Shown here one piece after another: positions 18,228 through 63,460 of a stretch of 64,000 nucleotides of DNA; positions within the stretch are counted from its first letter, which is position 1; every line of letters begins with the position of its first letter. Where the stretch lies: NCBI GenBank assembly GCA_016214565.1, contig JACROE010000002.1:792007-856006 (forward strand), in the 5' to 3' direction. The DNA is from Candidatus Kerfeldbacteria bacterium. Its GTDB lineage: Bacteria; Patescibacteriota; Patescibacteriia; UBA10025; JAHIVO01. The notes beneath the pieces are model-generated. The model did no database searches, was not told where the DNA came from, and saw only the letters and a program-made list of their open reading frames with translations. The position numbers and the translations under genes are program-made.

Positions 18228-19289
18228 ATGAGTGAGCATCACGATAAGCAATTCACGATTAATATTTCGACCGGATCTATTGTTCGATTTCTGGTTATTT
18301 TAGCCGTATTGGGCATCGTGTATTTGCTGCGCGAGGTGATTTTGATTTTGATTGTGGCAATTATTATAGCCAGTGCGCTCAATCCCTGGGTGGCCAGTTT
18401 GCAGCGTCGGGGCATCCCGCGCATTGTGGCAACCCTGTGCATTTACATTTTATTTTTTGGTTCATTTATCGTGGTGTTGATGCTGATGATACCGCCGATT
18501 GCTGGACAGATTTCCGATATTGCCCATAATTTTCCGCAGTACTATAATCGGGTCGTCAATGATTTTCAGCAATTTCAGGATTTTTCATTGCAGCAGAAAG
18601 TATTGGATAATTTAGATTCAGTTTTCAAATCGCTGGAAACGAATATCGGAAAATCCAGCGGTGGTATCTTCAGTCTGCTCGGAGGAGTCTTCGGTGGTTT
18701 CTTTGCTTTCATTGGCGTGGTTGTCATTACTTTTTACATGTTGCTGGAGGACAACGCTCTCAAAACGTTTATCCGTTCAGTCACCCCAGTCAAATACCAG
18801 CCGTATGTTTTTCAGCTGGTGAATCGATCACAGGATAATTTGCGCATGTGGCTTAGAGGTCAATTAATTTTAAGTTTGATTATTGGCGTACTAACATATA
18901 TTGGATTAACTTTATTGGGCGTTGAATACGCGTTGGTATTAGCTCTCTGGGCGGCGCTGACTGAGTTTATTCCGTATCTGGGACCGACACTGGGCGCAAT
19001 TCCCGCGGTGTTTATTGGGTTGACCACGGGCAATTTTATTCAGGGTGTGGCGGTGGTTGGGCTGTACGTCGTTATTCAGCAATTAGAAAATCATCTGATC
19101 GTTCCGAAAGTCATGCAAAAGGCAGTCGGCCTCAATCCATTGGTGGTCATCGTATTGATGTTAGTTGGCGCAAAATTAGCGGGCATTCTCGGATTATTAC
19201 TGGCCGTGCCGTTTGGCTTGATAGTCAAGTCGTTCGTGGATGATTTTACGGCAACGAAAGAGGAGAAAGAGGCGGTACTCGAGAATTAA
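18228..19289 (+). CDS. AI-2E family transporter
   Basis: Multi-TM; WLRGQL, EFIPYLGP, QQLENHLIVPKVM, GLNP, GLLLAVP. Confidence 0.9.
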   Translation: MSEHHDKQFTINISTGSIVRFLVILAVLGIVYLLREVILILIVAIIIASALNPWVASLQRRGIPRIVATLCIYILFFGSFIVVLMLMIPPIAGQISDIAHNFPQYYNRVVNDFQQFQDFSLQQKVLDNLDSVFKSLETNIGKSSGGIFSLLGGVFGGFFAFIGVVVITFYMLLEDNALKTFIRSVTPVKYQPYVFQLVNRSQDNLRMWLRGQLILSLIIGVLTYIGLTLLGVEYALVLALWAALTEFIPYLGPTLGAIPAVFIGLTTGNFIQGVAVVGLYVVIQQLENHLIVPKVMQKAVGLNPLVVIVLMLVGAKLAGILGLLLAVPFGLIVKSFVDDFTATKEEKEAVLEN

Positions 19290-19322
19290 AAAAATGGAGC
19301 GACCGGGGAGGCCCGATCGCTC
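19288..19322 (-). terminator. Intrinsic terminator of the bS21-like unit
   Basis: GAGCGA..TCGCTC hairpin followed by T7 on the minus strand. Confidence 0.7.
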
Positions 19323-19344
19323 AGTGAAGTGGTAATGTTGAGAA

Positions 19345-19671
19345 TTACCGAGGTTTGAAATGAAGGTGGCTAGAAGTGCCTTCACGTTTTCTTTTGTTTG
19401 CCCGTTTATGGCGGGTCAACAATTTGTTTTTCCGAACCGATGGCGGTTCATAGCGCCCATAGGTGCGTCGTGTGTCCGCGGTAACGCGGGTTTTTTCCAG
19501 CAGGTGCCGGAGTCGACGGATGGCGCTTTCGATTGATTCGCCTTCACGGACACGCACGCCGCCATTTCCTGTTTTCCGGGATTTGATTGGCGGTGGTGGC
19601 TGACTCCACAGATACCCTCTTCCTCCCGTAGTCGGGCGGTCATACAAACCATAGGTTATGGGGTTGTACAT
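19345..19671 (-). CDS. Divergent ribosomal protein bS21-like protein with N-terminal extension
   Basis: VRVREGESIESAIRR...YEPPSVRK matches the bS21 core; GGAGG SD; TTGACT-N17-TATGCT promoter at 19773-19745. Confidence 0.7.
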   Translation of the reverse strand: MYNPITYGLYDRPTTGGRGYLWSQPPPPIKSRKTGNGGVRVREGESIESAIRRLRHLLEKTRVTADTRRTYGRYEPPSVRKNKLLTRHKRANKRKREGTSSHLHFKPR

Positions 19672-19774
19672 TGTTCCTCCTCAGTCGTTGTATTGGAGAC
19701 TATACTTGATTGACGAAAGTACGAGTAGCATTGTATGTTGGATGAGCATAGCAATGGCATATTAATTAGTCAAT

Positions 19775-20618: not shown

Positions 20619-20710
20619 GATTCATTTTTTGGTAGTGATTACCACATTTTAAATGAAAAGCCGCAAGAATGTTTCATCTTACGGCTTATTTGTGCATTGC
20701 TTGCAACTGG

Positions 20711-21487
20711 CTAATCTTCGGTGTACCCTTTGCCGTTGCACGAAGGGCAGTCTCCACTACCGCCACACTTGTAGCAGTCGTCATCTGGCATGAATGCAGG
20801 ATGCCCATCGCCTTGGCATTCAGCGCATTTGCCGTCGCCGATGTCACCATGATGCAGATCATTGATTTCATCGTTGCAATCATCGCATTTAGCGATGCCA
20901 AGCGTTCTTCGCCATTTGTCATCGTCATCTACATCCTCCCTATCGCCGCTTGAGTCAGAAGAATGCAAACTCGATGAGCTAGAGCTTGGGGCTGAATAAT
21001 CACCTGAACTTGATGACCAATCAGATGAGCGTGATGATGGAGGCCTCGGTTTACTGATCGGCACAGCTTTAGGAGCAACGACGGCTGCTGCCGCCGCATG
21101 TTGTACTGCAGCTATTCGTACAGCTTCTTTCTGTTGCATCTCCCACTCTTTCCTTTTCCGCTCGTTTTCTGCCATTTTTTCACAAAACATAATAATGCCA
21201 ATAATGAATATAATAATCATTATCGCGAGCGCAATAGCTGCTAGTATTGAAGTAACAATTATAGCCCAAAGTATTTTAATACAGACGACAAATCCTATAT
21301 ACATTTCCCCCCAAAATGTATGAGCAGGCTGCGCTCTGTATTTTTTTGGGCACAGATCAGTGTCGGAAGAAAAGCCGAATACGCAACGTGCGTTTTCTGG
21401 ACCCCATCGTTCAACGGCAATAATAAAAACAGTAAAGCAAGCACCAAGCCAGATGAATCCGGATAGTATCCACATATACCAAGTCAT
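20711..21487 (-). CDS. Membrane protein with Ser-rich linker and C-terminal DnaJ-type CxxCxGxG zinc finger
   Basis: TM segments, charged coil, CAECQGDG, CYKCGGSG, CPSCNGKG; own TTGACA-N17-TATGGT promoter and AAGGAG SD. Confidence 0.7.
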   Translation of the reverse strand: MTWYMWILSGFIWLGACFTVFIIAVERWGPENARCVFGFSSDTDLCPKKYRAQPAHTFWGEMYIGFVVCIKILWAIIVTSILAAIALAIMIIIFIIGIIMFCEKMAENERKRKEWEMQQKEAVRIAAVQHAAAAAVVAPKAVPISKPRPPSSRSSDWSSSSGDYSAPSSSSSSLHSSDSSGDREDVDDDDKWRRTLGIAKCDDCNDEINDLHHGDIGDGKCAECQGDGHPAFMPDDDCYKCGGSGDCPSCNGKGYTED

Positions 21488-21665
21488 GATATAGCTCCTT
21501 GTATTGTAAAGAACGTTTATGTATTCAAATCACCATACTTTTATTGAATCAATTTGTCAATGGGTTATGCGGGAAATTTTTTTAAGTCAGGTGGAGGAGT
21601 GAATCTTCACGATTTTTGGTATACTATATAGTGGGTTATATAGTTTGATTATTAACGTAACCACC

Positions 21666-23018: not shown

Positions 23019-23128
23019 AATCTAATCGGAAATTCTAAAATATTTTTATTGACAGCTAACGGTAAGTTCCAGTATGCTGTCATAATCAAACGGCACATTT
23101 CAGTAAACATTTTTTCACGGAGGGACGC

Positions 23129-23464
23129 ATGAATAAGTCTCGGAAGGCGCTTTTGTTTGGGGCGGCGGGCTTAGTGCTCGGTTCCTATGGGGGATTCAAT
23201 TTTCATGTCATTGGCTTCGGGCCATTGCTTTTGTTTGGCGCAGTGTTCGTGCTTGGCTCTATCAAAGCGAGTGGGACGAATGGAATCGCCGATGCGGTGA
23301 TTTTTCTGGTAGCCATGGCGGTCGCGATCTATGTGCACCGCGAAGACTCACCGAAGATATTCCGCATCATTCTGATGATCATTGAAGGGGCTATCTACAG
23401 CACGATTTTGGCACAGATTTTTTTGAAGCGGCGCATTGGCTTCGAACATGTACGTATGGATTGA
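23129..23464 (+). CDS. Hypothetical 4-TM protein (stand-alone unit)
   Basis: TTGACA at 23049, GGAGG SD, terminator at about 23484-23526. Confidence 0.6.
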   Translation: MNKSRKALLFGAAGLVLGSYGGFNFHVIGFGPLLLFGAVFVLGSIKASGTNGIADAVIFLVAMAVAIYVHREDSPKIFRIILMIIEGAIYSTILAQIFLKRRIGFEHVRMD

Positions 23465-23583
23465 CGCTTCTGCGGCATCGTGTTACCAGTCATTCTCGTT
23501 TGAAGAGTGGCTGGTATTTTATTTTTGAAGATTGAATCGGATTAATTAATAAAAAAGAGCCTCATAGTGTAATTACGAGACTC

Positions 23584-24423
23584 TTATGCCACCAGCTCGA
23601 GCTGGTGGAGTATACGTCGTAACAGGTGATCGGCGCCAGTTTCGCGCATGACCATATGGCCAAACTGATGCATGATCATGGTGCTGTCTGGAGCGTATTT
23701 ACGAACTAAGGAGTGCTGGATCCGCAAGGGGACCACTTGATCATTTTTGCCTGCGACGATCAGGATTTGGCGCGAATGAATGTGCGGAACTCGCACTGTG
23801 TTCAAGATAATGGATTGAAGCACTCGTCCAATACGAGGCGGATCGACCTGCCGTAGGCTCTGGAGACCGTCAAGTTGGTCAAACAAATCATCCTGCCATC
23901 GCTGACGGATTGTCGGCGGAAGCTTACCTCTGACCCACGTGAGCGCCTCACGGTAAAGCTGACATTCATCAAGGTTGCGGTTTACCCCTCGCGTGAAGAG
24001 ATGTTTGAATATTTGGGGCGTGTATCGTGGCAGATGAGCCGTCCAATACCAGCCAATATTACGAATGCCAAATGGGGCAACGCTGGCGATAAGCACCACG
24101 GCGGGGATAGCGCGTTTTGACGCCACGACCTGGGCAATCAAACCACCGAGCGAATGTCCGCATAGAACCGGCACTACTCCGTATTCAGATTGAATACGAT
24201 CTAAAGCGTCATGGACGATTGCCACGTAGTCATTGATTGACAGGCTCGTCTTTCCGGTTGGGAAGTTGATGGACCACGATTGGTATCCATGGTCGGCGCA
24301 CTGCCGTGCCCATTCACCCCAAATCGTTGCATCATTCCACAGACCATGAATGAAGAATATGGATTTGTCGGATACGCTCCACTTGGCCGGAGCGTAGTGT
24401 AGCGTATAATTGGTTTTCACCAC
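23584..24423 (-). CDS. Alpha/beta hydrolase
   Basis: FIHGLW, GHSLGG nucleophile elbow, GKNDQVVP, GHM; GTG start after GGAGGG. Confidence 0.85.
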   Translation of the reverse strand: MVKTNYTLHYAPAKWSVSDKSIFFIHGLWNDATIWGEWARQCADHGYQSWSINFPTGKTSLSINDYVAIVHDALDRIQSEYGVVPVLCGHSLGGLIAQVVASKRAIPAVVLIASVAPFGIRNIGWYWTAHLPRYTPQIFKHLFTRGVNRNLDECQLYREALTWVRGKLPPTIRQRWQDDLFDQLDGLQSLRQVDPPRIGRVLQSIILNTVRVPHIHSRQILIVAGKNDQVVPLRIQHSLVRKYAPDSTMIMHQFGHMVMRETGADHLLRRILHQLELVA

Positions 24424-24599
24424 AGTACCCTCCATTATTTAAGATTTAAGGAACAAAACTATTTCACCCCACTATACTGTGTGTCATGATAATTGTAAAG
24501 TCTCGCTGGGCATCCGGGGAGTCGCGTGGGTTGACCAATATTTTACTTTACACAAATTATTGATATACTGAAGCTATAATTCATTAATCAAATAGTCCT

Positions 24600-25241: not shown

Positions 25242-25386
25242 CCAGAATTTTTCAGATAGCCGCTGATACACGCATGTGTGTCAGCGGTTTTGGTTGTTCG
25301 TTGACAAAAAGAAGAAAACGCTATACGATAGGGCATCAAGAAATAGCTCTGTTAAATAATAATCTCTCGATAGCATGGAGGATAGT

Positions 25387-25551
25387 ATGAACATGTTTCA
25401 GTATCTTTGGGCGGATTTCATATCCCAGTGGCCGCGTGTCGACAAAATGGCTCTTAGCCTGGTCGTACTCCTGTTTCTCGGGATTGTCATCTTTCTTGCA
25501 TTCTTAGCAAAAAAGATTGACTCTTTGTTTGGTCGAGCAGTACTTGCCTGA
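25387..25551 (+). CDS. 54-aa single-TM microprotein (not in the ORF track)
   Basis: MNMFQYLWADFISQWPRVDKMALSLVVLLFLGIVIFLAFLAKKIDSLFGRAVLA; TTGACA(25301)-N17-TACGAT, GGAGG SD, terminator at about 25581-25619. Confidence 0.7.
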   Translation: MNMFQYLWADFISQWPRVDKMALSLVVLLFLGIVIFLAFLAKKIDSLFGRAVLA

Positions 25552-26641: not shown

Positions 26642-26674
26642 ATACCTCAATCCGAAAATTTTTGGTATACTATA
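26642..26674 (+). repeat. 33-bp direct repeat, copy 2 (metG promoter)
   Basis: ATACCTCAATCCGAAAATTTTTGGTATACTATA; TATACT lies 9 nt before the metG ATG. Confidence 0.9.
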
Positions 26675-26680
26675 CATATT

Positions 26681-28111
26681 ATGGCACAGCGATTTTATGT
26701 AACAACACCTATTTATTACGTCAATGATAAGCCGCATATTGGGCATGCCTACACCACGATTGCGGCCGATGTTTTGGCGCGGTATTACCGGCTGCAGGGA
26801 GCTGAGGTGTTTTTTTTGACTGGTACTGATGAGCATGGCGACAAAGTAGCAGAAAGCGCGGAAAAGGCCGGTCAGTCAGTGCGGGCGTTTGTTGATCAGA
26901 ATGCCGGTGAATTTTCAAAAACGTTTGCTAATCTTGAGATTAGCCATGATATATTCATGCGGACGACGCTGAAGGAACACGAGGCTTCGGTGAAAATCTT
27001 CATGGAAAAATTGCATGCCAACGATGCCCTCTATCAGGGGACGTACGAGGGACTGTACTGCCGCGGGTGTGAGGACTTTTATACTGAGAAAGATTTGATC
27101 GACGGCCTGTGCCCGATTCACAAGAAAAAACCCGAAGTGGTAAAAGAGAAGAACTGGTTTTTCAAATTAACCCAATACCTTCCTGAAGTACAGCGCTTAA
27201 TTCAGGACGGGGTATTAGCCATCGAGCCAGACTCGCGCCGTAGCGAAGTATTGGGGTTATTCAAGCAAGGCTTGAAGGATTTTTCCGTGACCCGTGAGCG
27301 GGTCAAATGGGGGATTGATTTTCCAATTGATCCAAAGCAAAAAATTTACGTCTGGGTCGAAGCTTTGCAGAATTACATTTCCGCTATCGGTTATGGTATT
27401 AATCAGGATGAATTTGTGAAATGGTGGCCGGCAGATGTCCACTTGATGGCAAAGGATATCGTGAAGTTTCACGCCATTTATTGGCCAGCCATGTTGCTGG
27501 CAGCCGGGGAGGAATTGCCGAAGAAAATATTTGCGCACGGCTTCTTTAGCCTTAATGGGCAAAAAATGTCCAAGTCATTGGGCAACGTCATTGATCCTAA
27601 TGACTTGGTGACTCAATTTGGCGCAGATGCAACGCGGTATTTGTTGCTGTCGCAATTTCCTTTTGGTCAAGACGGTGACATCAAACAAGAATTATTTATT
27701 GAAAAATATAATGCTGACCTCGCCAACAACCTGGGCAATCTCGTGAGTCGGGTGTTAAATATGATTGAGCAGTATTGCGATGGTCGGATACCCCAGGATG
27801 TCATTTCACCAATATTCCTTGACGAAGTCGGTCTGCATATTGAACGGCTTGAATTTGACTTGGCATTGAAAAAAATGTGGTCCGCAATTGATGATGCTAA
27901 TCATATGATAGACGACCAAAAACCCTGGGTGCTGGCAAAAGATCCCGCCCAGCGCGAAGCACTGGAGTTGCTCTTGTCCCAGCTGGCACGATTTTTACTG
28001 GATCTGGTGAAGGTATTAGAGCCCTTCATGCCCAATGCCGCCGCGCAGATCGTGGGCGCATTTTCCGCGGAAAAAATCGTAAAAGGAGAACCATTATTTA
28101 AACGAAAATAG
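26681..28111 (+). CDS. metG: Methionine--tRNA ligase (short form, no C-terminal tRNA-binding domain)
   Basis: TTPIYYVN..HIGH, GTDEHG, KDIVKFH, KMSKSLGN. Confidence 0.96.
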   Translation: MAQRFYVTTPIYYVNDKPHIGHAYTTIAADVLARYYRLQGAEVFFLTGTDEHGDKVAESAEKAGQSVRAFVDQNAGEFSKTFANLEISHDIFMRTTLKEHEASVKIFMEKLHANDALYQGTYEGLYCRGCEDFYTEKDLIDGLCPIHKKKPEVVKEKNWFFKLTQYLPEVQRLIQDGVLAIEPDSRRSEVLGLFKQGLKDFSVTRERVKWGIDFPIDPKQKIYVWVEALQNYISAIGYGINQDEFVKWWPADVHLMAKDIVKFHAIYWPAMLLAAGEELPKKIFAHGFFSLNGQKMSKSLGNVIDPNDLVTQFGADATRYLLLSQFPFGQDGDIKQELFIEKYNADLANNLGNLVSRVLNMIEQYCDGRIPQDVISPIFLDEVGLHIERLEFDLALKKMWSAIDDANHMIDDQKPWVLAKDPAQREALELLLSQLARFLLDLVKVLEPFMPNAAAQIVGAFSAEKIVKGEPLFKRK

Positions 28112-34236: not shown

Positions 34237-34258
34237 GATGATAGTTAGCTCTACAGTC

Positions 34259-49254: not shown

Positions 49255-49423
49255 GCAAACCTCCCTAGTTGAAGTGGAACAATACTATACTATCGGAATG
49301 AGAGTATAGCCGGACATTGTAGCCGAAAGTGGCAACTTTGTCAAGTATGGACGATTGAGTGTTGTAAAAAAAGCCATCGTTGACGACGGCTTTTGGCGAG
49401 AATGCAGAGAGTGAGCAATGTTG

Positions 49424-49648
49424 CTAATCAGAGAAATTCCTCCTCTTAGGTTTTTCTGGTCGAACCGGCCAGACGTCATAGGGATCAGTAACGACAGACC
49501 GTGGTCCAGAATTTGTTTCTTTCCTGAAAACTTCTGTCGGCACCGTAGTGGTGACTCCCATGTCATCACTGCTGGTGACTGGCGGGGTCGTGGGACGAGA
49601 TTTCCCTAATGTCCCCAGGGATCGGATCATGTGTAGGAGTGTTTTCAC
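49424..49648 (-). CDS. 74-aa Thr/Pro-rich orphan protein (stand-alone unit)
   Basis: TTGACA-N17-TACAAT; ATTCTTTCAAAA; GGAGG-N7-GTG; terminator AAGCCGTCG..CGATGGCTT. Confidence 0.55.
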   Translation of the reverse strand: MKTLLHMIRSLGTLGKSRPTTPPVTSSDDMGVTTTVPTEVFRKETNSGPRSVVTDPYDVWPVRPEKPKRRNFSD

Positions 49649-49863
49649 GCGGCCCTCCATGGTCGGTGAGTGGTTTTATTTTTGAAAGAATATGGAGTGA
49701 TTGTAGGCGCCTGAACGGTGAATGTCAATAATTATTTTCAGTAAACTCTTGACAACGTAGGATATTATTGGTATAGTGGTCGGTAAACATTTCAATGCTC
49801 AAAACGAGCAGCGAAAACTAAAAAAGAAAAAACGTTAATTACATACAACTTGGAGGACAAGTC

Positions 49864-50433
49864 ATGTGCGATCAAGCTTTCCCGCATTTCTATAGAGTAG
49901 GCGGGTGTGCTCGTGCGTTACATCTGCGGCGGCTTCAGTATGTGAGGCGGCAATTTGACGAAACGGTCGCGGATCCGCGCCAACTAGCGTCCCAGGACTA
50001 TGCCTGGGTGGAGCGTCACTCCCGGTTTGCTGAAAATCTCAGGGAAAAATGGGTGGCCGCTGTTTCGTCGCAGTTTTTTCAGACGGGCATTCATTTGCGA
50101 AATCTCTGGAATGACCAGTTTTATTTCCGCATTCCGCGACGAGTGCCTTTCCCTAAGGTTCAGATTCTGGGAGCGAAAGCATTTTTAAACGAGTGCCCGC
50201 TGTGTTGCACGACATCAGTTGAGTTGCTCAGGTTAACTAGTGGTGATGCTACGCTATCACATTCGCGGGTTCGTTGGCTCTTTATGGGGTCGGTTGATCC
50301 GTCGCGGTGCACGCATCATGTGCCGGTTGATGATGTTTCATGGAAGATAATCAACAACGCACTGTATCTGTTTTGTTCAGATACAGTGAAGGAGGTTCAT
50401 GAGGAAGTCATTTGTTCTCAGGTGTGCGGGTAA
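49864..50433 (+). CDS. 189-aa orphan protein, Cys/His-rich
   Basis: TTGACA(49749)-N17-TATAGT; GGAGG-N7-ATG. Confidence 0.6.
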   Translation: MCDQAFPHFYRVGGCARALHLRRLQYVRRQFDETVADPRQLASQDYAWVERHSRFAENLREKWVAAVSSQFFQTGIHLRNLWNDQFYFRIPRRVPFPKVQILGAKAFLNECPLCCTTSVELLRLTSGDATLSHSRVRWLFMGSVDPSRCTHHVPVDDVSWKIINNALYLFCSDTVKEVHEEVICSQVCG

Positions 50434-50654: not shown

Positions 50655-51251
50655 ATGCAATTCACCCTCCGACTTCATCGCGCTTTCATGACCGCTGCCC
50701 GGTTGCATGGAGGCCAACGACGCAAAACGGACGACATACCATACGTGACCCATTCTTATGCTGCAGCCTTTATCGTATCTCAGCATACGCAGGATGAGGA
50801 TATTATTATTGCAACCATTCTTCACGATGTGATTGAGGACGTGGCTGGTTATTCTACTCAAGAGATGACTCGAGATTTTGGGGAGCGGGTGACCTCATTA
50901 GTACTTCAAGTGAGCGACCCGGAAAAAGTTCCAGATATGACTTCAGCAGATGAGCGTGCTACATGGGAAACTCGCAAAACTAATTTTATTGAACATTTGC
51001 GGAAAGCCAGTTCTGATGCCCTGATGATTGTGGCTGCAGACAAGCTGCATAATATGGTGTCTACGGTAGAGGCATATGGGCGTCATGGCAAAAGTATTTT
51101 CAAGAAATTTAATTCGCCGATTGTTCGGCGGCAGTGGTTTCATGGCGAGGTCGTCGCATTAGTGAAGCAGAAGCTTCATAACGCTTTGGCGGATGAGCTA
51201 GAGCAAGTGTATCGAGAGGCAAATCGAGCGCTTGACGTCAGCAATAGTTGA
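50655..51251 (+). CDS. HD-domain protein, Mesh1/small alarmone hydrolase-like
   Basis: H.GQRRK..PYVTH, ILHDVIED, FGERV..LV, ADKLHN. Confidence 0.85.
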   Translation: MQFTLRLHRAFMTAARLHGGQRRKTDDIPYVTHSYAAAFIVSQHTQDEDIIIATILHDVIEDVAGYSTQEMTRDFGERVTSLVLQVSDPEKVPDMTSADERATWETRKTNFIEHLRKASSDALMIVAADKLHNMVSTVEAYGRHGKSIFKKFNSPIVRRQWFHGEVVALVKQKLHNALADELEQVYREANRALDVSNS

Positions 51252-51300
51252 TAGTAGGATTTTAAAAAATAGTACCATCCCCACAACCACGGAGGTCATA

Positions 51301-51519
51301 ATGCAGAATGCTTCAGGAACGAGGCAAGTTGTTATTCAGTGTCGGCTGTGCCCGAAAACGTTTATCGCCGATGATAAGATGGCGATCCCCCCGAGCCACA
51401 CAAATGGCAAAGGAAACTTTTGCTTCGGATCATATGATCCGGGGGAATTCAAGTGCTATGCTGATGAGTATCCGAAACCCGGCGTGGCTCGTCCAGAAAA
51501 CATTGAAGTTCACGTCTGA
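51301..51519 (+). CDS. C2HC zinc-ribbon small protein
   Basis: CRLC-x15-H-x7-CFGS; TTGACG(51232)-N17-TAGGAT; GGAGG SD; terminator AAACCGC..GCGGTTT. Confidence 0.65.
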   Translation: MQNASGTRQVVIQCRLCPKTFIADDKMAIPPSHTNGKGNFCFGSYDPGEFKCYADEYPKPGVARPENIEVHV

Positions 51520-51676
51520 GTCACATTTTCTGTCATCAGTATTGCAAACCGCTTGTTGTTAATTCAACCGGCGGTTTATTATTTGCATTAGCCACGGTAC
51601 TGCGGTAAGGTAATGTAATTAATAAAATCAAAACAGAAATCGCCTTTTAAAACCCTTATTTTTGGAGGAATTAGTC

Positions 51677-52279
51677 ATGAACATGCGTAAAATTACCCGC
51701 GCCCTTATATCCGTTTCGGATAAGGCAAACTTGACCGGTTTGGTCGCCAGTTTGCACAGCCATGGTGTGGAAATTATTTCCACCGGCGGCACATTCAAAG
51801 CGATTCAGCAGGTTGGTATCCCCGTCATTCCGGTGAGCGACTTCACTGGCTCTCCTGAAGTGATGGATGGTCGCGTTAAGACCATTCATCCGAAAATCGC
51901 CGGCGGCATCCTCTTCCGAAGAGAAGAGACGAATGACTGGTATGCACTAGGTCAGCTGGGTGGTAAGCCCATTGACCTGGTCGTGGTCAATCTGTATCCC
52001 TTCCGGGAGAAAGTTGCGGCTGGTGCCTCGCACGCGGAAATTGTTGAGAATATCGACATTGGTGGGCCGTCACTACTCCGTGCCGCGGCGAAAAACTACG
52101 ATGACGTAGCCGTCATTACCGAGCCGGGCGATTATATTCGCTTGATGACGCAACTCGATGCCAATGACGGACAGACTGAACTGGCATTTCGGGAGGAATG
52201 CGCGGGGAAGGCATACACACTGACAGCTGCGTATGATAAAGAAATTGCGAAATACTTCGCGAGCTGTCAGGCGCGATAA
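51677..52279 (+). CDS. IMP cyclohydrolase (PurH N-terminal MGS-like domain only)
   Basis: RALISVSDK, ISTGGT, DGRVKTIHP, VVVNLYPF, IDIGGPSLLRAAAKN; stops before the AICAR transformylase domain. Confidence 0.9.
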   Translation: MNMRKITRALISVSDKANLTGLVASLHSHGVEIISTGGTFKAIQQVGIPVIPVSDFTGSPEVMDGRVKTIHPKIAGGILFRREETNDWYALGQLGGKPIDLVVVNLYPFREKVAAGASHAEIVENIDIGGPSLLRAAAKNYDDVAVITEPGDYIRLMTQLDANDGQTELAFREECAGKAYTLTAAYDKEIAKYFASCQAR

Positions 52280-52442
52280 GCCTATTCTTGAGCACGAGCT
52301 GCGTGCCAGACCGCTGGATGTTTATTCATTCGGCGGTTTTATTATTTGCCAAGTTTTATGACTAGGTATAAGATACTCAAATTACAGAAATATACATAGT
52401 TTCCTTACCATAAACGCCTCTCATGATGAGGGGAGAAAGAGA

Positions 52443-53591
52443 GTGAATCTCATGGATTCGCAGAATGTGCAATTTGCCGATCAATTGGTGAATTATTGTA
52501 CTGAAGTCAAACCGGGCGAACTCGTGATCATTCAGGCAAATGATGGTACTCCATACGACCTGATTGATGCAGTGATTGACTCGGTCAATCGTGCGGGCGG
52601 CAGTGTCGCTGCGGTCTGGTTGAATTCTGATCGCGTTACGCGAAAGGTATTCAGCCAGCTGACGCCGCATGCTGAGCGCATCTGTCATGCTGGACCGCTG
52701 GTCCAGGCCATGGCGACGCAGGTGTGCATCGTCTTTCGGGGTTTCGATAACATCTACGAATGGGTCGACGTGCCGAGAGACAAAATGCGTCTCGCCTCAA
52801 GCGGTATGGGGAAGCATCTCCAGGATCAGCGCATTCAGCACACCCGTTGGATCCTCACTCGAATGTGGACGCCGGGTATGGCACAGCTGGCAGGCATGAG
52901 CCAGTCGGCATTTCATGACTATTACATGAAGACAGTGCTGCTGGACTACGGTCGGATGTCGCGGGCCATGGATCCGCTGTTTGATCTGGTCAATCAGACC
53001 GAAGATGTGCGGATCAAGGGTCCGGGCAAAACCAACCTCCGATTCAGTATCGCAGGGATTGGTGCCGTCAAATGCGACGGCAAGCGGAATATTCCCGATG
53101 GGGAAGTCTACACGGCGCCGGTACGTGAATCAATGAATGGCGTGATTCAGTATAATACCGTCACGGTGACCAAGGAGGGTCAGCGGTTCGAAAATGTCTG
53201 CTTCGAAGTGAAACGGGGTAAGATCATCAAGGCCACCTGTGGTTCTGGTGACGAGCGTCGACTGAATGATTTCCTCGACACTGACGAGGGTGCGCGCTAT
53301 TTCGGCGAATTTGCCTTTGGGGTCAATCCCCACATCCTGATGCCGATCGGTGAGACCCTCTTCGACGAGAAGATCGCTGGTTCGTTCCACCTCACCCCTG
53401 GCCAGTCCTATACTGGCACGCCGGCTGAAAACGGGAACAACAGCGCTATCCATTGGGATATCGTCTGTATCCAGCGTCCTGAATTCGGCGGTGGAGAAAT
53501 CTGGTTCGATGGAAAGCTCATTCGAAAGAACGGTCTCTTCGTTCCGAAGCGGCTGCTCGGACTGAATCCTGATCAGCTGATAGCTGCTTAA
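52443..53591 (+). CDS. M29 aminopeptidase (AmpS/PepS family)
   Basis: NIPDGEVYTAP, DEGARYFGEFAFGVN, LFDEKIAGSFHL, SAIHWD. Confidence 0.92.
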   Translation: MNLMDSQNVQFADQLVNYCTEVKPGELVIIQANDGTPYDLIDAVIDSVNRAGGSVAAVWLNSDRVTRKVFSQLTPHAERICHAGPLVQAMATQVCIVFRGFDNIYEWVDVPRDKMRLASSGMGKHLQDQRIQHTRWILTRMWTPGMAQLAGMSQSAFHDYYMKTVLLDYGRMSRAMDPLFDLVNQTEDVRIKGPGKTNLRFSIAGIGAVKCDGKRNIPDGEVYTAPVRESMNGVIQYNTVTVTKEGQRFENVCFEVKRGKIIKATCGSGDERRLNDFLDTDEGARYFGEFAFGVNPHILMPIGETLFDEKIAGSFHLTPGQSYTGTPAENGNNSAIHWDIVCIQRPEFGGGEIWFDGKLIRKNGLFVPKRLLGLNPDQLIAA

Positions 53592-53617
53592 TCTCTATCC
53601 TCTCGTTTTTTCCCGCG

Positions 53618-53645
53618 CCCGCTGTTCGACTATTGGACAGCGGGT
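53618..53645 (+). repeat. 28-bp direct repeat, copy 1 (aminopeptidase terminator)
   Basis: CCCGCTGTTCGACTATTGGACAGCGGGT followed by ATTTTTTT; identical to 56734-56761. Confidence 0.92.
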
Positions 53646-53825
53646 ATTTTTTTGTAAGTTGAAAGGTAATTTGACGATTTTTCATGGGTACGCTAGGGTG
53701 AAAATAGATAGAAAAAAAGAACATTAACAACCTTCATAATACCCGAAGGGGGTGATTTTTTGTCCAGTTTGATACGTCGTTACGTGAATTCTGAACTTAA
53801 ACCAAGCATGAAAAAGGAGTAAATC

Positions 53826-56576
53826 ATGCGAAACCTGATTAGTAAACCACTGTGTTGGCTTTTGTGCTGCCTGCTGCTCGTCCAGCCGATGATCAGCTGC
53901 AACAAGAAGCCGACGGAACCTGAACCAAAGCCGGAGCCAAAGGTGACTTTTGTCGCCGACTATAATCTGCCGTTGTTTGCAAAAAAGTTATCTTCGATCC
54001 AATTGCAAGATCTGGGGACTGATCCGACAGTACAGCAGGTTCAGCAAGCCCAGAGCCTTTCAAAATCTTTCGAATTTAACGATATCGGTATGCACTTGAA
54101 TGGACCCGAGTGGAGTAAACCGTGTCCACAGGATGGATGTTTTGATCCACCATGTGAACCTTCACTAGCAGGTCGGTCATTGTATCACTACAACTGTATC
54201 ATCTACATCAAAGTTTTGGATCGATGGGATGGCAATACACCAATTTTCAAAAATAAAAATATTGCCAACATCCATCTTTACCAGAATCCAGACCGACCGA
54301 ACTGCTGGGGCGCTGTTGAGTACACAACTGGTTATTGTATTTCATCAGAAAAACTCTGTGGCAAGCCGCCACACGAGGTCTTTATTGCGACGTTGCAAGC
54401 CGTTCTCGAACGCTTGGCTAATATTGGAGCTATTACTCTTCAGCAAATCGATGATGCACGCAAAGGGCTAGGTCTGACTCCTGAATTAGCTGCCGTTATT
54501 TTAATCGTAGGGTTAGTTTCAGCGGGTTATATCGCCGTTGCTGGATCTTTGCTTTCCGCTGCTGGTGCTATTCTGGTAGAACTCGGTATTTCAACTGAAG
54601 CTGCTGGTGGATTTGCTGCTGTATTTTTGGTCGGTATTAATATCAATAATCCACCAGAAACGCATGATCCGCTGGCCAGTATTAATGAAGCACCGACAAT
54701 TTGTCAGGTTAATACTTCGCAAAAATTTGTATTTTCCGGACAATATTGTGAAGAGATCGCAATCTCCTACGACGGCGGTTATACAGTCGAGTACTTCTTT
54801 CCCCAAGACCTACCGAAGACCACATGGCACACTTTCAACTCGGCCGGCACCTACGAAATTCGTAACACTGCCTATGGTAATGGCAAATGGTCTCCGACAG
54901 TGAAGCGGTATGTTACCGTTACTGATCCGGTGACTAATCTGCCTCCGGTCTCCAATCCCTCATGCCCCGGTACGGCCATCGTCAACCAACCGGTTTCAGT
55001 CACAAACAACGCGACTGATGCGGATGGCACGGTAACCGAATACCGATGGCGCGGCGAGTTCGGCAACTTCACCACTACTACGAAGCAGACCAACGTCACG
55101 TTCACGTCGACAGGAACAAAGGTGGTCTACATGTCGGCGAAGGATGATGACGGCGCGTGGGGACAGGAACCGTTCTGTACTATTGATGTTTCTTCAGTCG
55201 TAATTAATCAACCTCCTGTCGCTTGCTTTTCGGCAAGTCCAGCCTCAGGCACGACTGAAACGACATTCAATTTGGACGCCGATTGTTCCACTGACGACAA
55301 GACCCCGCTGGCAAACCTCCAGGTTCGCTGGCAGATTGATGGCAGCTGGACAGGATTTACCACCACCAAGACGATAAGTAAGAAATGGTCCACTTATGGG
55401 ACCAAGACAGTTATCGTCGAGGTGAAGGACGGCGATGGTTTGACCGACCAGGAAACGAAAACAATCCAGGTCGACAATCCCGGCCCGACTACCGGTACGA
55501 TCGAGGTAAGTCCGAATCCCTCCACGGCAAGCTGGGACATCACACCTGGCGGATACACGGGAAGCGGCTATCAGTCGATTCCTAATGTCGCGCCTGGCGA
55601 GTATCATATTACCTGGCATTCACTATCTGGTTATGAGACTCCAGCAGGAGAGTATAAGACGTTGCAGGCAGGTAAAACCATCACTTTCAGCGTTAATTAT
55701 ACTCCGAGCAGCACGCCAATTGACTTCACTCCAACCAGTATTCCAGATGCGACCCTCCTGCAGTATTATGAAGTAACATTCGTAAGCACTGGCGGGACGC
55801 CCGGGTATGGCGTCGCTTTTTCCTTGAGCGGTAGCTTGCCTGGATTGTCATTCAGGAACAATGCTGACGGTACTGCGACACTCTATGGCACGCCTAACGT
55901 CTTGGGTTCATATCCGATCACCATCACCGTGGTGGACAAGGGTAACCTGCAGAACAAAAAGTGGTGCGACTATACTCTCGTCGTGAAATCGGCGGTCGGC
56001 AAGCTTGTTGTCGACCCAGCTGTCTTGAATATGGGCAGCGACCTCAGTTTGGCATACTCGACCGCATCCAATGCCAACAACAATGGTCCGATTACATTTT
56101 CCTTGTCGTCCAACCAAACCTGGTTGACCACATTTCCTTCTTCTGTCGGTACCACCACTCAGGAGATCAAAGTCATGGTCAGCCGGTCGGGCTTGTCTGA
56201 TGGGCAGTATAACGGGCGGATTACACTTTCGTCCTCGGGCGGGACGGCGTACATAGATGTCGAGATGACAGTGGCAACTGGCTGCGTTATGTCTCCGGAT
56301 ATGATTTCGCCGATCAACGGTCAGAATTTGGATCTGACCGATCCCGTATTTTCCTGGAGTAAAGTCTGTCAGGAAGCGGGCAAGTTCTATGCTGTTATCG
56401 TTAAGACCGAAAGTTACTACGGTGATGTCGTGTTTTTTGAGGATTTCGACTACCGGGATACCTACGTTAGATATACTGGTAGCAGCCTCCAGACGTACCG
56501 GACATACTATTGGTTCTTAACCGATGCCTATGGCACGCCGGTGACTGGCATTGAATCTTTCTATGTCATTCCTTAG
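53826..56576 (+). CDS. Large lipoprotein with a Cys-rich N-domain, hydrophobic hairpin and PKD/Ig/BACON-like repeats
   Basis: Lipobox-like MISC-NKKPTEP; NLPPV/NQPPVA..DADG/DGDG PKD-like repeats; LPGLSF..GTP Ig-like; SNQTWL BACON-like. Confidence 0.75.
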   Translation: MRNLISKPLCWLLCCLLLVQPMISCNKKPTEPEPKPEPKVTFVADYNLPLFAKKLSSIQLQDLGTDPTVQQVQQAQSLSKSFEFNDIGMHLNGPEWSKPCPQDGCFDPPCEPSLAGRSLYHYNCIIYIKVLDRWDGNTPIFKNKNIANIHLYQNPDRPNCWGAVEYTTGYCISSEKLCGKPPHEVFIATLQAVLERLANIGAITLQQIDDARKGLGLTPELAAVILIVGLVSAGYIAVAGSLLSAAGAILVELGISTEAAGGFAAVFLVGININNPPETHDPLASINEAPTICQVNTSQKFVFSGQYCEEIAISYDGGYTVEYFFPQDLPKTTWHTFNSAGTYEIRNTAYGNGKWSPTVKRYVTVTDPVTNLPPVSNPSCPGTAIVNQPVSVTNNATDADGTVTEYRWRGEFGNFTTTTKQTNVTFTSTGTKVVYMSAKDDDGAWGQEPFCTIDVSSVVINQPPVACFSASPASGTTETTFNLDADCSTDDKTPLANLQVRWQIDGSWTGFTTTKTISKKWSTYGTKTVIVEVKDGDGLTDQETKTIQVDNPGPTTGTIEVSPNPSTASWDITPGGYTGSGYQSIPNVAPGEYHITWHSLSGYETPAGEYKTLQAGKTITFSVNYTPSSTPIDFTPTSIPDATLLQYYEVTFVSTGGTPGYGVAFSLSGSLPGLSFRNNADGTATLYGTPNVLGSYPITITVVDKGNLQNKKWCDYTLVVKSAVGKLVVDPAVLNMGSDLSLAYSTASNANNNGPITFSLSSNQTWLTTFPSSVGTTTQEIKVMVSRSGLSDGQYNGRITLSSSGGTAYIDVEMTVATGCVMSPDMISPINGQNLDLTDPVFSWSKVCQEAGKFYAVIVKTESYYGDVVFFEDFDYRDTYVRYTGSSLQTYRTYYWFLTDAYGTPVTGIESFYVIP

Positions 56577-56733
56577 TTCGCAAAGCACCTTTTAACCTTT
56601 TTGGCAGAAGACACCAGTCTTCTGCCATTTTTATTTCAATTAAAGTTAAGGGATACAACAAGCTCAGGGTTTCGATTGGCTGAAAATAACTATTGCTTCA
56701 TTCTTTTTTTTGAGTATTGCTATTGAGCATTCA

Positions 56734-56829: not shown

Positions 56830-57675
56830 TTAATAGAGAGTGATCCGGAGCATGAGCGTGGCAATCATGAGATTGACCATACCGAGGTCAATGACTCGAT
56901 AGCGATTTGAGACATAGGAGCCGGGGAGCAATCGCTTGGCGAGATTAATCATGAAATACATGCCAATCAAGAAGAAGATGAAAACCGGTGCCGCAGAAAA
57001 CAGTTCCGTGTAGCGTAGCTGCAAGAGACCGCCGATGAAGCAAAGGATTGATAGGAAGAGTAGCGCGCCCGCAATTCTCTGGGTTGTTTTCATGCCAAGC
57101 GACATGACCATCGTAAATCGCTTTCCTCGATTCGCCGCCAGATCATCATTATCCTTGAGAACCTCTCGAGCTAAGTACGCACAAAAGATACCAGCCATAA
57201 GAAATGGAACAATCGGATGCATCCGATGGCCCGAGTACCAGCCCATGACGACGGGACTGACGCAAACCGACGCAATTGCCAGATTCTTAAACGGCCAATA
57301 CTGATCTAAGAAATTGGCATAGAACATGATCATTGCAAAATTGAATAGTGCAATCCAGGTACAGATTGCCGGGAGAAATACACCCGCAATGGCAATTGAA
57401 AGCAGAAATGCAATTGCGCCCGATAGAATTAATACTAGGGGTTGATTGACAATCACGAGGTCGTACCATTTTTTTGCATAAATATCATGCCGACGACCAT
57501 AGTGGAAAAGGCTAGCGCCCAGACAGCTGAAAAACATGCTGACTCCCGCGGCAACTTTTGGCTCATTAGACCAGAGTGGCCCATTTGAGAGAAGGGCGAT
57601 CAGCCAGGTGCTGAGACCTGCTATGATGCACTGCTCAATGCGTGTCACTTTATAGAGAAATTTCAAGGAACCCAT
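56830..57675 (-). CDS. UbiA-superfamily (DGGGP synthase-like) prenyltransferase homolog with a degenerate first Asp-rich motif
   Basis: Multi-TM; KNLAIA; LAREVLKDNDD...R.T; start at GGAGG-N4-ATG (57675). Confidence 0.7.
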   Translation of the reverse strand: MGSLKFLYKVTRIEQCIIAGLSTWLIALLSNGPLWSNEPKVAAGVSMFFSCLGASLFHYGRRHDIYAKKWYDLVIVNQPLVLILSGAIAFLLSIAIAGVFLPAICTWIALFNFAMIMFYANFLDQYWPFKNLAIASVCVSPVVMGWYSGHRMHPIVPFLMAGIFCAYLAREVLKDNDDLAANRGKRFTMVMSLGMKTTQRIAGALLFLSILCFIGGLLQLRYTELFSAAPVFIFFLIGMYFMINLAKRLLPGSYVSNRYRVIDLGMVNLMIATLMLRITLY

Positions 57676-57888
57676 GTTACCTCCGAAAATATATTGATGT
57701 TTGTGTATTGATGTTTCCAGCCATCTTGCCATAACCATAGCTGATTAGTCAAATGAGTACCGGCGCCTGACTCTGTGTCATAGTGGCGCTTTTTAAGGTT
57801 TTCATGGTAGGGTAAACGTTGATAGAGCATTTCGAGAGCCGTCAGTTGCAGGCAGGTAGTCGTGTGTGTTCTTGCCCTTTATTTATTA

Positions 57889-60936: not shown

Positions 60937-60963
60937 CAATAGTAAGCAGAATAGTTGAGCATA

Positions 60964-61149
60964 AAGTAAAAAGAGTACCGAAGCACTCTTTTGAGATATG
61001 TCATTGCCGCGATCACCACTTGGCAATGGAATTGCGCGAGGCATAGACTGAAATTCAGTCGAGCCCGCCGGTGGTGAACAATAATTTCCGAGCCCGAAAA
61101 TTAGGGGGTGCAAAAGTAAATTTGGGATAGGGAGAAGGGGCGAGGATTA
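60964..61149 (-). ncRNA. Candidate C/U-rich structured small RNA 2 (about 185 nt)
   Basis: TTGACA(61183-61178)-N17-TATGCT; C/U-rich 5' part, three hairpins, terminator AAAAGAGUGC-UUCG-GUACUCUUUU. Confidence 0.6.
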
Positions 61150-61248
61150 ATACGAGCATAGCGAATTGCGGTGCCCGTGTCAATAAGTAAAAAAACCGGC
61201 TCCTTGCGTTGCACAGGAGCCGGGTTACATGGTCAGTTGCTGGTTCAA

Positions 61249-63303
61249 TTATTTTTGCACTTGCACACTGCCTACCCCTGAAGGCAGCGTGAGAATGCGG
61301 TTTTGTTTTCCCGAAAGCGAGACCCAATACAGGCCTTGCTCGGCACGGACTGCGACTGCGGAAAAGTCGGGCGACCAGTCGATCCAGTATATTCCCACAT
61401 CTTGCATGAGAATAGTCTGGGTGTTCCAGTCGTTCGGTTCTCCGAGCGTAAGCTGGTGGCCACTAAACCAGGTTAGATAGTGAGTACGGTCGTCCGTAAA
61501 AAATAACGGTCCGAACCCTTTCTCTGAGAGCTGGTGGAGCGGCGCGAAGGTGCTGTCGGTCAGTTCTGACAGATTGATACTGAAGAGGCCGGCTGGGTTC
61601 CCCATTTTTTTAAATACTGCCAGACTGTCATCCAGCCAGACGGTACTCAGATTTTCGTCGTATTCCGTGGAAAATCTGCCGCTGATGTCACGGGCATTTG
61701 AGCCGTCCGCATTCATCAGATAGAGCCAGCCGTAGTAGCCCCATTCATGGTGGACAAAACTGATGGTTTGCCCATCAGGCAGGTAGACTGGGCAATTATC
61801 ATAGGTAGCAGATTTGCTCCGGTAGAGATGGATGACTTCACCCGTCCCTGGATTGAGCCGGAAGATTCCAGCCCAATATCGGCCAAAGAGAACGTATTGG
61901 CCGTCGGGAGACCAGCTGAAGTCGCTTGAGCGTTGGCCGACGTAATCAGGATACGACCCGATGACATTCCCTTGGGCATCCAGAACCATCAGAGCATTTC
62001 GCCCGGCGTAGACGAGCGCAGATCCGTCTGGCGCCCAGGAAAGCCCTTGGCCGCCCGGCGAATAATCTTCCCGCCATCGGAGGGGGTTGAGGCCGTCCAA
62101 GCCGATCGTGAAGATGGTATCCCCGACGGTATAGATGAGGCGATGATCAGGACAGAGATCCGCCGTGGCATGGTAGCTGTAGCTATTGCCAAAGGTGACC
62201 GCGAATGACTGAACATAGGGGAATCGCCCCGGATGTTGCACGATAAGTTCGTATTGACCGTCGCTCACTGAGTCTACATAGATTGGCGTGGTGCCGAGTG
62301 GCAGACCGTTGAGCGTTACAGTTCCAGCGCCATATGGCGAAGTAACCGTCAGCGTGGCGGGCGTAGGATTGAGATTGGTACCGATGCCAATGGTTGTATT
62401 GGCTATGATGGTGACCATCGTTTCCCACGATCGGTAACGGTCTCGTATGATACGAATTGTATGCTCACCGGTAGGGATGCCAGAGAGCCTGGCAGGCGTG
62501 GTTGATCCGGTCAGTACACCGTCTATCAAGATAGCTGCGCCTTCAGGAATGGACCATACATCCAGCATACCGGTTTGGTGCACGAGGGTGGCCGCCACCA
62601 TGACCGTATCAAAGGCGATCACGGTTTGATTTGACGTCCAATCTTCATAATCGGGAAGCGATAGCCGAATATGGTGAGTGGTCGCCAACAGGCCGGAGAT
62701 GACACTCGGCGTCGTCAGGTAGGTGTCCTGGTTGTCCACGAAGATTGGCGCTCCGGGCGGTTCGGATGTAATCATCAGCGAGCCTTCAAGCTTGCGCATG
62801 ATTGCATGTATTTTCAGCGTATCACCCGTGGTGTGATGGATGGCGGTATCCCAGTCGGCGTAGTCAGGATGGGTGAGTTTGATGGTCACCGTGCCGGTGT
62901 CGATCCAGGTGATGAAGGGTGTCGGCTGAAGCAGGTAATTCCGGAAATTGACCGTGGCTCCGGTCGGGTCAGACGTAATCACCATCGGATGTATCATGGC
63001 TTGTATCAGTGTCACGCGGAGCGTGTCAATTGCTCCGGGAGCAATCGACACGGAATCTTGCCAGTGGTAGTAGTTCCACTGGCTGATGCGGATGGAGTAC
63101 TTCTGGTTCGCCACGAGGTTGATCGTGAGCGGCGTGCGCTGTCCGAGCAATTGATCGTTGCTGTAGACATTGGCAACGGCCGGATCAGTGATAACCACGA
63201 GCGTGCCGATAGTCGGCTTTGGCGGTTCGGTCGGCTTGTCTTTACAAGCCAAGCACAGCAGTATGGCTACCGCCAGGCTGAGTAGAGAAAAACGGGTATA
63301 CAT
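61249..63303 (-). CDS. Lipoprotein with several PEGA repeats and a TolB-like (PD40) beta-propeller
   Basis: LAC-KDKPTEP lipobox; repeated ITSxPxGA..TP; WAPDG/WSPDG repeats; AAGGAGG SD; TTGACG-N17-TAAGAT. Confidence 0.85.
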   Translation of the reverse strand: MYTRFSLLSLAVAILLCLACKDKPTEPPKPTIGTLVVITDPAVANVYSNDQLLGQRTPLTINLVANQKYSIRISQWNYYHWQDSVSIAPGAIDTLRVTLIQAMIHPMVITSDPTGATVNFRNYLLQPTPFITWIDTGTVTIKLTHPDYADWDTAIHHTTGDTLKIHAIMRKLEGSLMITSEPPGAPIFVDNQDTYLTTPSVISGLLATTHHIRLSLPDYEDWTSNQTVIAFDTVMVAATLVHQTGMLDVWSIPEGAAILIDGVLTGSTTPARLSGIPTGEHTIRIIRDRYRSWETMVTIIANTTIGIGTNLNPTPATLTVTSPYGAGTVTLNGLPLGTTPIYVDSVSDGQYELIVQHPGRFPYVQSFAVTFGNSYSYHATADLCPDHRLIYTVGDTIFTIGLDGLNPLRWREDYSPGGQGLSWAPDGSALVYAGRNALMVLDAQGNVIGSYPDYVGQRSSDFSWSPDGQYVLFGRYWAGIFRLNPGTGEVIHLYRSKSATYDNCPVYLPDGQTISFVHHEWGYYGWLYLMNADGSNARDISGRFSTEYDENLSTVWLDDSLAVFKKMGNPAGLFSINLSELTDSTFAPLHQLSEKGFGPLFFTDDRTHYLTWFSGHQLTLGEPNDWNTQTILMQDVGIYWIDWSPDFSAVAVRAEQGLYWVSLSGKQNRILTLPSGVGSVQVQK

Positions 63304-63460
63304 GAGTTCCTCCTTGGAAGGGTATCTAGGTCAGTGTTATTTTGCTATTAATGTTGCTTTTTTCAGGCGTTTGTTTCGAAACCAATCTTAGTCCTGTGTG
63401 CAGGAATCGTCAAGCAATACCCGGATTGATTTTTTATGTATAATCAGCCACACTCAGGAT

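Follow-up and report, generated by a model that had tools for sequence, protein, structure and literature searches.

The T-DNA of Agrobacterium carries signals that fit another cell, uses a type IV secretion system (T4SS) and yields products that reroute host metabolism, while phage morons, auxiliary metabolic genes and host-takeover genes are single genes with their own promoter and terminator. In Bacteroidota, bS21 is associated with sequestration of the anti-Shine-Dalgarno sequence (anti-SD) and with autoregulation of rpsU, nearly the sole gene there with a Shine-Dalgarno sequence (SD), according to the available text of PMC9976891; in Patescibacteria, a T4SS is present with VirB4 and mostly without relaxase, and the accessible part of PMC12102498 names no substrate for it. 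Here, starting from a 64,000-nt stretch of a Candidatus Kerfeldbacteria genome (the window; GCA_016214565.1, contig JACROE010000002.1, positions 792,007 to 856,006, or G000:C1:792007-856006), we describe a second resident class of stand-alone genes, called units below, with a TTGAC promoter, a boxA-like leader, GGAGG and a terminator, and we propose such a substrate. The class is real and is widespread in our phylum sample. As with T-DNA, its signals would fit another cell, a T4SS is involved in the proposal and the products would reroute host metabolism; the differences are a bacterial host, 76 to 89 dispersed units and a favored RNA route. Unit cargo also matches phage cargo (purine and pyrimidine [pur/pyr] enzymes, sigma, bS21 and CsrA; for phage bS21, see the available text of PMC9723584), but units, unlike morons, belong to the chromosome of a cell, where backbone genes flank them and one even lies within the atp operon; they are inherited and ameliorated.

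The 1.13-Mb genome (G000) was compared with the entire genomes of two relatives, G002, a member of the same genus with a median identity of 68% and synteny across the window, and G010, of the same family (54% identity, 33% GC); 199 kb of a further genome (G001) entered the unit scan and motif training only. Genes were called with a custom codon model that ignores SDs and overlooks many short open reading frames (ORFs), and units were sought by a strict, motif-first scan for promoter, SD and ORF, run against five control patterns. All 17 of the −35 boxes listed for the window in a first-pass annotation were present, those on the minus strand starting 5 nt higher than listed, and each has TAnnnT at a distance of 16 to 18 nt (17 nt in 12/17). 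An SD-led ORF lies directly downstream of 16 of them, with GAGG only at 33281, and the seventeenth (34782, minus strand) drives a SAM riboswitch. Genome-wide, the strict scan recovered 76 units in G000 versus 14, 7, 4, 6 and 3 in the five controls, 86 in G002 (controls, 2 to 15) and 89 in G010 (controls, 0 to 36), a few of them being false positives (one is a start within atpB). Units are scattered along C1 from 50 to 1000 kb rather than forming one bordered block, and the window is the densest part of the genome, with 16 of the 76 in the 800- to 850-kb bin. Their leaders are mostly 30 to 80 nt long, and in G000 terminators follow 45/76 units versus 46/265 runs of conserved genes. Moreover, their −10 boxes are more degenerate than those of conserved genes (3.9 versus 4.6 matches to TATAAT), their proteins diverge faster (51% versus 69% identity; 29 versus 767 pairs), and they show no leading-strand bias (41/76, versus 489/643 conserved genes, with origins placed crudely from GC skew).

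The contrast between units and backbone lies mainly in the SD. Among genes present in G000, G002 and G010, counted at operon heads, a strong SD was found in 13/271, 18/292 and 9/276, respectively (3 to 6%), versus 18/80, 22/73 and 43/177 orphan heads (23 to 30%; P = 9e-6, 2e-7 and 1e-11). The two expression grammars suggested by the first-pass annotation are thus borne out in all three genomes as far as SD frequency is concerned. The −35 box behaves less uniformly, being enriched at orphan heads in G002 and G010 but not significantly in G000 (22/80 versus 52/271; P = 0.12). The SD is associated with TTGAC promoters (odds, 7 to 12) and avoids extended −10 promoters; the discriminating features are the SD and its pairing with a promoter, not the −35 box alone. 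The statement that almost all orphans have their own promoter fits this window and overstates the genome, where a strong SD precedes 18/80 of the orphan heads called, a count to be read with the qualification that the SD-blind caller missed many short units. Within 19288 to 63413, 3 of 19 family-conserved genes have a strong SD, and one of these is the half-PurH unit. As for the supposedly partly leaderless backbone, leaderless starts account for a minority (a −10 box located 5 to 8 nt before ATG was counted 29 times among 256 conserved heads, versus a background of ∼12), and the majority of backbone genes have no SD yet carry a leader or are coupled.

A feature overlooked in that annotation is the boxA-like motif between promoter and SD. 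De novo search returned G[TC][TA]C[TA]TT in 137 of 239 unit leaders versus 23 shuffled ones, mostly 10 to 20 nt past the −10 hexamer; its frequency in the −35 promoters of conserved genes (14/108) does not exceed background. In held-out tests in the three genomes, the motif was found in 31/68, 38/78 and 41/81 leaders versus 6 to 8 after shuffling (shuffle maximum, 10 to 13), and the exact core GYTCWTT was found in 6/68, 12/78 and 15/81 versus <1 expected. The learned consensus, TAGTTCTTTAAA, is a loose fit to GYTCTTTAANA, the boxA consensus in the available text of 10.1101/091223, which concerns Escherichia coli suhB; according to the same text, a boxA close to an SD represses translation in whichever cell makes the transcript, and this repression requires a full Nus complex on elongating polymerase. 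The suhB type has 0 to 7 sites per gammaproteobacterial genome in that source, unlike the dozens here, which occur in cells in which no Rho was found. NusB is encoded in G000. Rho was detected in 3 of 36 chosen genomes, being found neither in G000 nor in 32 of the 35 others, in disagreement with a Rho-dependent outcome. The three Patescibacteria encoding Rho (G056, G242 and G364) are unit rich.

Across the phylum, the strict unit pattern occurs in 354 of 401 Patescibacteria genomes, including 30/30 of the same class as G000 (4 to 37 matches, 0 to 2 in reversed controls). Some families are almost without matches (in f29, 6/15 genomes have any, and f43 is likewise near zero); in these, units may be absent or may carry a different signal suited to their host. 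Loss of the anti-SD in part of the Parcubacteria is already described in the available text of PMC9297842. The 3′ end of 16S rRNA was recovered in 244 genomes, with the canonical tail in 170; 66 of the other 74 ends were viewed, of which most keep CCUCC after an upstream variant and 12 are clearly without it (G328, G262, family f29 and other wobble-type ends, as well as G395 with its contaminant-like rRNA end, were left out of this count). These 12 anti-SD-less genomes contain 57 unit matches versus 4 in reversed controls, distributed as follows (matches/controls): G171, 15/2; G390, 9/0; G306, 8/0; G250, 5/0; G183, 5/0; G273, 4/0; G370, 4/1; G054, 3/0; G185, 2/0; G339, 2/0; G199, 0/0; and G400, 0/1. 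With GGAG, 36 matches were obtained in five of these genomes, versus 6 when GAGC took its place. Units share a contig with the anti-SD-less 16S rRNA gene in G171, G306 and G273. The part of these genomes analyzed comprised 30 small loci and 77 kb of G171, the contig bearing its 16S rRNA gene among them; in the 77 kb, 5/44 conserved genes were flagged for an SD and several orphans had promoter, boxA and SD. Among 26 distinct matches inspected, four are weighed below, and most others are orphans with terminators.

Several products fit poorly with the cell that encodes them. One unit of G000 (C1:127845) is shared with both G002 and G010; its protein begins with a segment resembling a signal peptide and ends in a predicted barrel of 8 strands, whose model matched best, in Foldseek, the outer-membrane barrels OmpA/OmpX/OmpW (E, 3e-5 to 1e-3). 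The Atlas cluster ranking first for this protein is most frequent in Zixiibacteriota (0.98). In addition, a unit of G306 is FadL/OmpP1 (E, 1.4e-36). Outer-membrane barrels require Sec and BAM. BamA/Omp85 was found in 0/9 Patescibacteria genomes, versus 7/14 controls and both candidate host-group genomes. Pfam, run on 74/86 G002 and 83/89 G010 units, named no family for most of them; those named are nucleotide enzymes (purA, B, C, D and H, phosphoribosyl pyrophosphate synthetase, pyrB-pyrI and pyrF), enzymes of lipid and other metabolism (GlnA, RpiB, FabH, FabD, AccB, PlsC and squalene synthase family) and regulators (STAS, anti-sigma kinase, PP2C, receiver, sigma, CsrA and bS21). Pathways are incomplete: FabH and AccB are units in G002, FabD in G010 and an ACP-like protein in G000, and FabF/B was not found in any of the three genomes; PurM/L was not found in G000 or G002, despite pur genes; and CarA was not found in 5 of 6 genomes, with PyrB present without it in G000, G002 and G010. 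Of the look-alikes of core proteins reported earlier for the window, bS21, the UbiA-family protein and half PurH were confirmed and the DnaJ-type CxxCxGxG repeats are visible, but no ACP was found among the window ORFs tested (Pfam, NCBIfam); the ACP-like unit lies outside the window at C1:504666 and was judged by eye. A second group-1 sigma is 71 to 73% identical to primary sigmas, and 5/5 named matches are Zixibacteria. In a tree built by a quick method, the copies of G000, G010 and one other member of the Patescibacteria, the latter in full unit grammar, stand beside Zixibacteria on long branches; the G002 copy and two other rows, on very long branches, were not interpreted. In G000, a Zixibacteria-type sigma (G000:C1:540601-542151; L065) is fused to ∼230 aa of unrelated N-terminus as the second gene of a unit. 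Two adjacent small units, at C1:341778 and 342438, appear by eye to be EF-Tu domain II-type barrels; they are kept in G002 and have no Pfam match.

The best reading of these results, ahead of an internal regulon and of imports, is that units are translated in a host cell; it is favored by SD-led units in anti-SD-less genomes, outer-membrane barrels without BamA, isolated pathway steps and the Zixibacteria-like sigma. We give about even chances that host ribosomes translate the units by one route or another, from mRNA or from DNA, and regard delivery as mRNA as a possibility falling somewhat short of that. The RNA route is preferred to DNA because of unit dispersal, the rarity of relaxase and the need of boxA repression for an elongating polymerase. 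The parasite RNA polymerase would make short, discrete unit transcripts, on which boxA would recruit the Nus complex to elongating polymerase and keep parasite ribosomes off, as at E. coli suhB. A relaxase-poor T4SS would then pass unit RNA into the attached host, where the transcript, free of polymerase, would escape boxA repression and have its SD recognized. Through the proteins thus made (enzymes for nucleotides and lipids, sigma, bS21, anti-sigma and receiver proteins, and proteins of the membrane and outer membrane), the host would produce more of whatever the parasite is unable to synthesize. VirB4-type PF19044 was found in 8/8 genomes tested; relaxase occurs in 103 of 3035 Patescibacteria genomes according to the available text of PMC12102498, a published rate, no search of G000 having been made. 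Extended to the phylum, the proposal that boxA-tagged, SD-led transcripts, withheld from parasite ribosomes, pass through the T4SS into host bacteria is likewise tentative. For G000's family, the predicted host is a Zixibacteria-like diderm.

A number of observations weigh against this reading. To our knowledge, bulk mRNA injection between bacteria has no precedent. The G000 ribosome can probably read an SD, given the intact anti-SD of its one 16S copy and the native extended SDs at the major pilin, VirB2-like pilins and rpsU (about −18 to −21 kcal/mol by our own duplex measure). Some pathway steps are present, namely, pyrD in all three genomes (SD-led where checked), PurL in G010 and CarA in G008. 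The barrel model is modest (pLDDT 63, from 4 sequences; TM 0.4 to 0.5 by target). Among the anti-SD-less genomes, which are kin of one another, 2/12 had no match, match counts include duplicates, and 3 of the 26 inspected matches were spurious and 1 was a DEAD-box helicase; boxA was found in 7/26 of their leaders versus 3.1 after shuffling (maximum, 8), and the strict boxA-plus-SD pattern was enriched in G171 (17 versus 0) and not clearly in the other 11, residency being established in G000's family only. Position 4 of the −10 box is G in 33/76 units, unlike conserved genes and the Zixibacteria-like genome G431. Lgt and LspA are also present, for which reason lipoprotein processing, considered as a test for a host, is not diagnostic.

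The rival closest to the biology of G000 itself is an internal regulon, in which the parasite would translate the units at one life stage, once Nus repression is lifted or the anti-SD of its ribosomes is freed, and use or export the proteins. The intact anti-SD, the extended SDs of native genes (that of rpsU, in G000 and G010, recalling Bacteroidota autoregulation), the retention of NusB, the existence of a second sigma and a second bS21, and control of one unit by a SAM riboswitch are all consistent with it, and for G000 alone, whose ribosome probably reads SDs, this account stays open. It leaves unexplained the SD units of anti-SD-less genomes and the signal-peptide barrels without BamA, and both the second sigma and the second bS21 have the grammar of units; overall we consider it rather doubtful. 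If, instead, host polymerase read transferred parasite DNA, as with T-DNA, and boxA protected the transcripts against host Rho, the host-pointing evidence would apply equally, and boxA in Rho-less genomes and the use of TTGAC-17-TAnnnT plus GGAG in candidate host-group genomes, together with the 4/76 units that lie antisense between same-strand conserved genes, would be accommodated. Nevertheless, units are spread round the chromosome without a bordered cluster, most Patescibacteria lack relaxase, a boxA close to an SD represses translation in the cell that makes the transcript, and position 5 of the −10 box is T in 10/19 promoters of G431 (hand count) versus 6/76 units and 4/42 conserved genes, so that this DNA route appears unlikely.

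Two further explanations treat the units as imported or mobile. One holds that units are moron-like imports, genes of SD-using donors that arrived with their own signals, now relics or merely convenient. It is in keeping with the 34 of 76 G000 units that have a counterpart in neither relative (40 have one in G002 and 15 in G010), with swapping at hot spots, with the host-like sigma and with a GC3 that lies 0.08 to 0.12 above that of conserved genes. Yet unit GC3 tracks the resident genome while signals are kept, as for the pyrB orthologs (0.67, 0.73 and 0.29); G002 orthologs keep the SD in 27/35 and the promoter in 31/35 cases, and G010 orthologs keep them in 5/12 and 9/12; broken-pathway and barrel cargo is kept across genera; and the best named homologs of the M29 aminopeptidase are Patescibacteria, with Firmicutes at just 51%. 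Moreover, we know of no donor with boxA on about half of its mRNA leaders. Imports are improbable, and already weakened for G000's family, in which the class appears to be resident rather than recently acquired. The other explanation, offered in the first-pass annotation, is an integrase-free layer of mobile cassettes switched en bloc by the bS21 paralog and two anti-SD-like small RNAs. The paralog is real and is kept in G002 and G010, and in Flavobacterium bS21 controls SD reading (available text of PMC9976891), but the paralog is itself a unit, and units persist where there is no anti-SD to unmask. The RNA containing CCTCC at 34562 to 34730, probably one of the two proposed small RNAs, is a SAM-I riboswitch that is absent from the G002 alignment, and the 190 nt after the minus-strand promoter at 61183 contain no CCTCC. 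The cassette idea itself agrees with the units lacking counterparts and with hot-spot exchange, and conflicts with synteny, orthologs and the absence of border repeats: ∼12 window units are syntenic in G002, including the bS21 paralog, the peptide inside the atp operon, half PurH, M29 and UbiA, while the others are swapped at hot spots; and no repeat shared by unit borders was found among the 20 largest of 43 repeat families (one terminator occurs twice). We regard this switch as extremely improbable.

Our literature search, with subscription journals and supplements outside its scope, returned no description of the unit class or of host translation, and nothing relevant was found in PMC10783764, PMC13059738 and PMC6851277; the boxA-marked class of ∼80 genes per genome is absent from the literature reached, even if the internal regulon holds. 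The question bears on the means by which Patescibacteria, incapable of lipid synthesis and of completing nucleotide pathways, exploit a host and on the cargo of their essential secretion system. If host translation is correct, one cell would reprogram another bacterium as a phage does, by handing over messages; host bacteria would build parasite effectors, including outer-membrane proteins; unit grammar would provide, from sequence, an effector list for each lineage and a prediction of its host (here, Zixibacteria-like); and scattered metabolic genes in Patescibacteria genomes would have been wrongly read as the parasite's own metabolism.

Native SD use in G000 can also be set beside the bS21 system of Bacteroidota as given in the available text of PMC9976891. 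The likeness consists of an SD-poor genome, an intact anti-SD and an extended-SD rpsU (here G000:C1:743161-743451, L063, and likewise in G010), making Bacteroidota-like bS21 autoregulation possible in Patescibacteria. The difference is that rpsU is not the near-sole SD gene, since the family has ∼10 extended-SD genes plus 76 to 89 ordinary-SD units, and that units persist without an anti-SD, unlike the system in that source. The extended start signal, GAAAGGGGGTGA, is found at ∼10 native genes and conserved in the three genomes (C1:216033, 475465, 166020, 626649 and 194257); these genes encode the major pilin, two VirB2-like pilins, a 34-aa lysine-rich peptide and small membrane proteins, as well as HU in G010. 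ARAGORN, run on the whole of G000, found 47 tRNAs and no tmRNA.

Table 1. Units and backbone features in the window (window coordinates)
Feature	Coordinates	Strand	Details
Second bS21 unit	19345..19773	-	−35 19768-19773; boxA-like 19713-19724; SD 19677-19681; 108 aa 19345-19671; syntenic counterpart in G002
Membrane-protein unit	20657..21560	-	Promoter; boxA-like 21505-21516; SD; 258 aa with CxxCxGxG repeats 20711-21487; terminator 20657-20687; absent at corresponding G002 site
Hydrophobic orphan unit	23049..23517	+	111 aa 23129-23464; terminator 23484-23517
Alpha/beta hydrolase	23554..24456	-	SD- and boxA-led; ORF 23584-24423; terminator; no strict −35 found
Microprotein unit	25301..25551	+	54 aa 25387-25551
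metG start (backbone grammar example)	26657..26683	+	Extended −10, 9 nt before ATG; SD-less
Orphan unit	33281..33775	+	Weak SD GAGG; 139 aa 33356-33775; G002 syntenic unit, 47%
Orphan unit	33858..34194	-	88 aa 33858-34124
SD-led orphan after riboswitch terminator	34207..34488	-	71 aa 34259-34474; own terminator 34207-34236
SAM-I riboswitch	34562..34730	-	Rfam RF00162, 48.7 bits; promoter at 34782; contains CCTCC
ATP synthase operon (backbone)	34979..42008	+	SD-less apart from atpE
Cys-rich peptide unit, antisense within atp operon	37441..37687	-	36 aa 37493-37603; −35 overlaps atpA start; same place in G002
S9-family peptidase unit (strict scan)	42047..43158	+	ORF 42121-43158; G002 ortholog not scored as unit
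Membrane orphan	43308..43857	+	boxA-like; SD; 153 aa 43352-43813; terminator; 83% in G002
Orphan unit	43880..44230	+	80 aa 43988-44230; syntenic unit in G002
Cys/His peptide	44388..44656	+	SD-led; 85 aa 44399-44656; no G002 match
Membrane peptide unit	44720..45005	-	−35 TTGCAT; 53 aa 44772-44933; terminator; 72% in G002
Orphan unit	47363..47809	-	94 aa 47423-47707; terminator
Orphan unit	48315..48677	-	90 aa 48315-48587
Orphan unit	48889..49344	-	121 aa 48889-49254; syntenic unit in G002
Orphan unit	49424..49728	-	74 aa 49424-49648
Orphan unit	49749..50433	+	189 aa 49864-50433
CxxC peptide unit	51232..51519	+	72 aa 51301-51519
PurH N-terminal half unit	51583..52340	+	−35 TTGCAT; ORF 51677-52279; terminator; syntenic in G002
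M29 aminopeptidase unit	52346..53651	+	−35 TTGCCA; weak SD; ORF 52452-53591; hairpin 53618-53651
PKD-domain predicted lipoprotein unit	53671..56628	+	916 aa 53826-56576; terminator; lacking in G002
UbiA-family prenyltransferase	56830..57684	-	SD-led; ORF 56830-57675; syntenic in G002, unit in G010
PEGA-repeat predicted lipoprotein unit	61195..63413	-	684 aa 61249-63303; terminator

Other observations were made in the window. The SAM-I riboswitch contains an inserted hairpin and precedes the 71-aa SD-led orphan. Identical 34-nt terminator hairpins, at 53618 to 53651 and 56734 to 56767, stand on either side of the 916-aa PKD-domain lipoprotein unit, for which the ESM Atlas gave no usable feature match. 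The TTGACA promoter of the minus strand at 61055 to 61183 has no SD-led ORF within 190 nt and no Rfam match at the gathering score, and its transcript is possibly a small RNA. Two near-identical 33-nt extended −10 promoters, exactly 1000 nt apart (25642 to 25674 and 26642 to 26674), bracket a glycosyltransferase gene that is absent from G002, and the duplication is likely an insertion scar. Finally, a heliorhodopsin gene (45858 to 46655, plus strand; Pfam E, 1.5e-97) adjoins a VIT1-family gene, both being conserved in G002.

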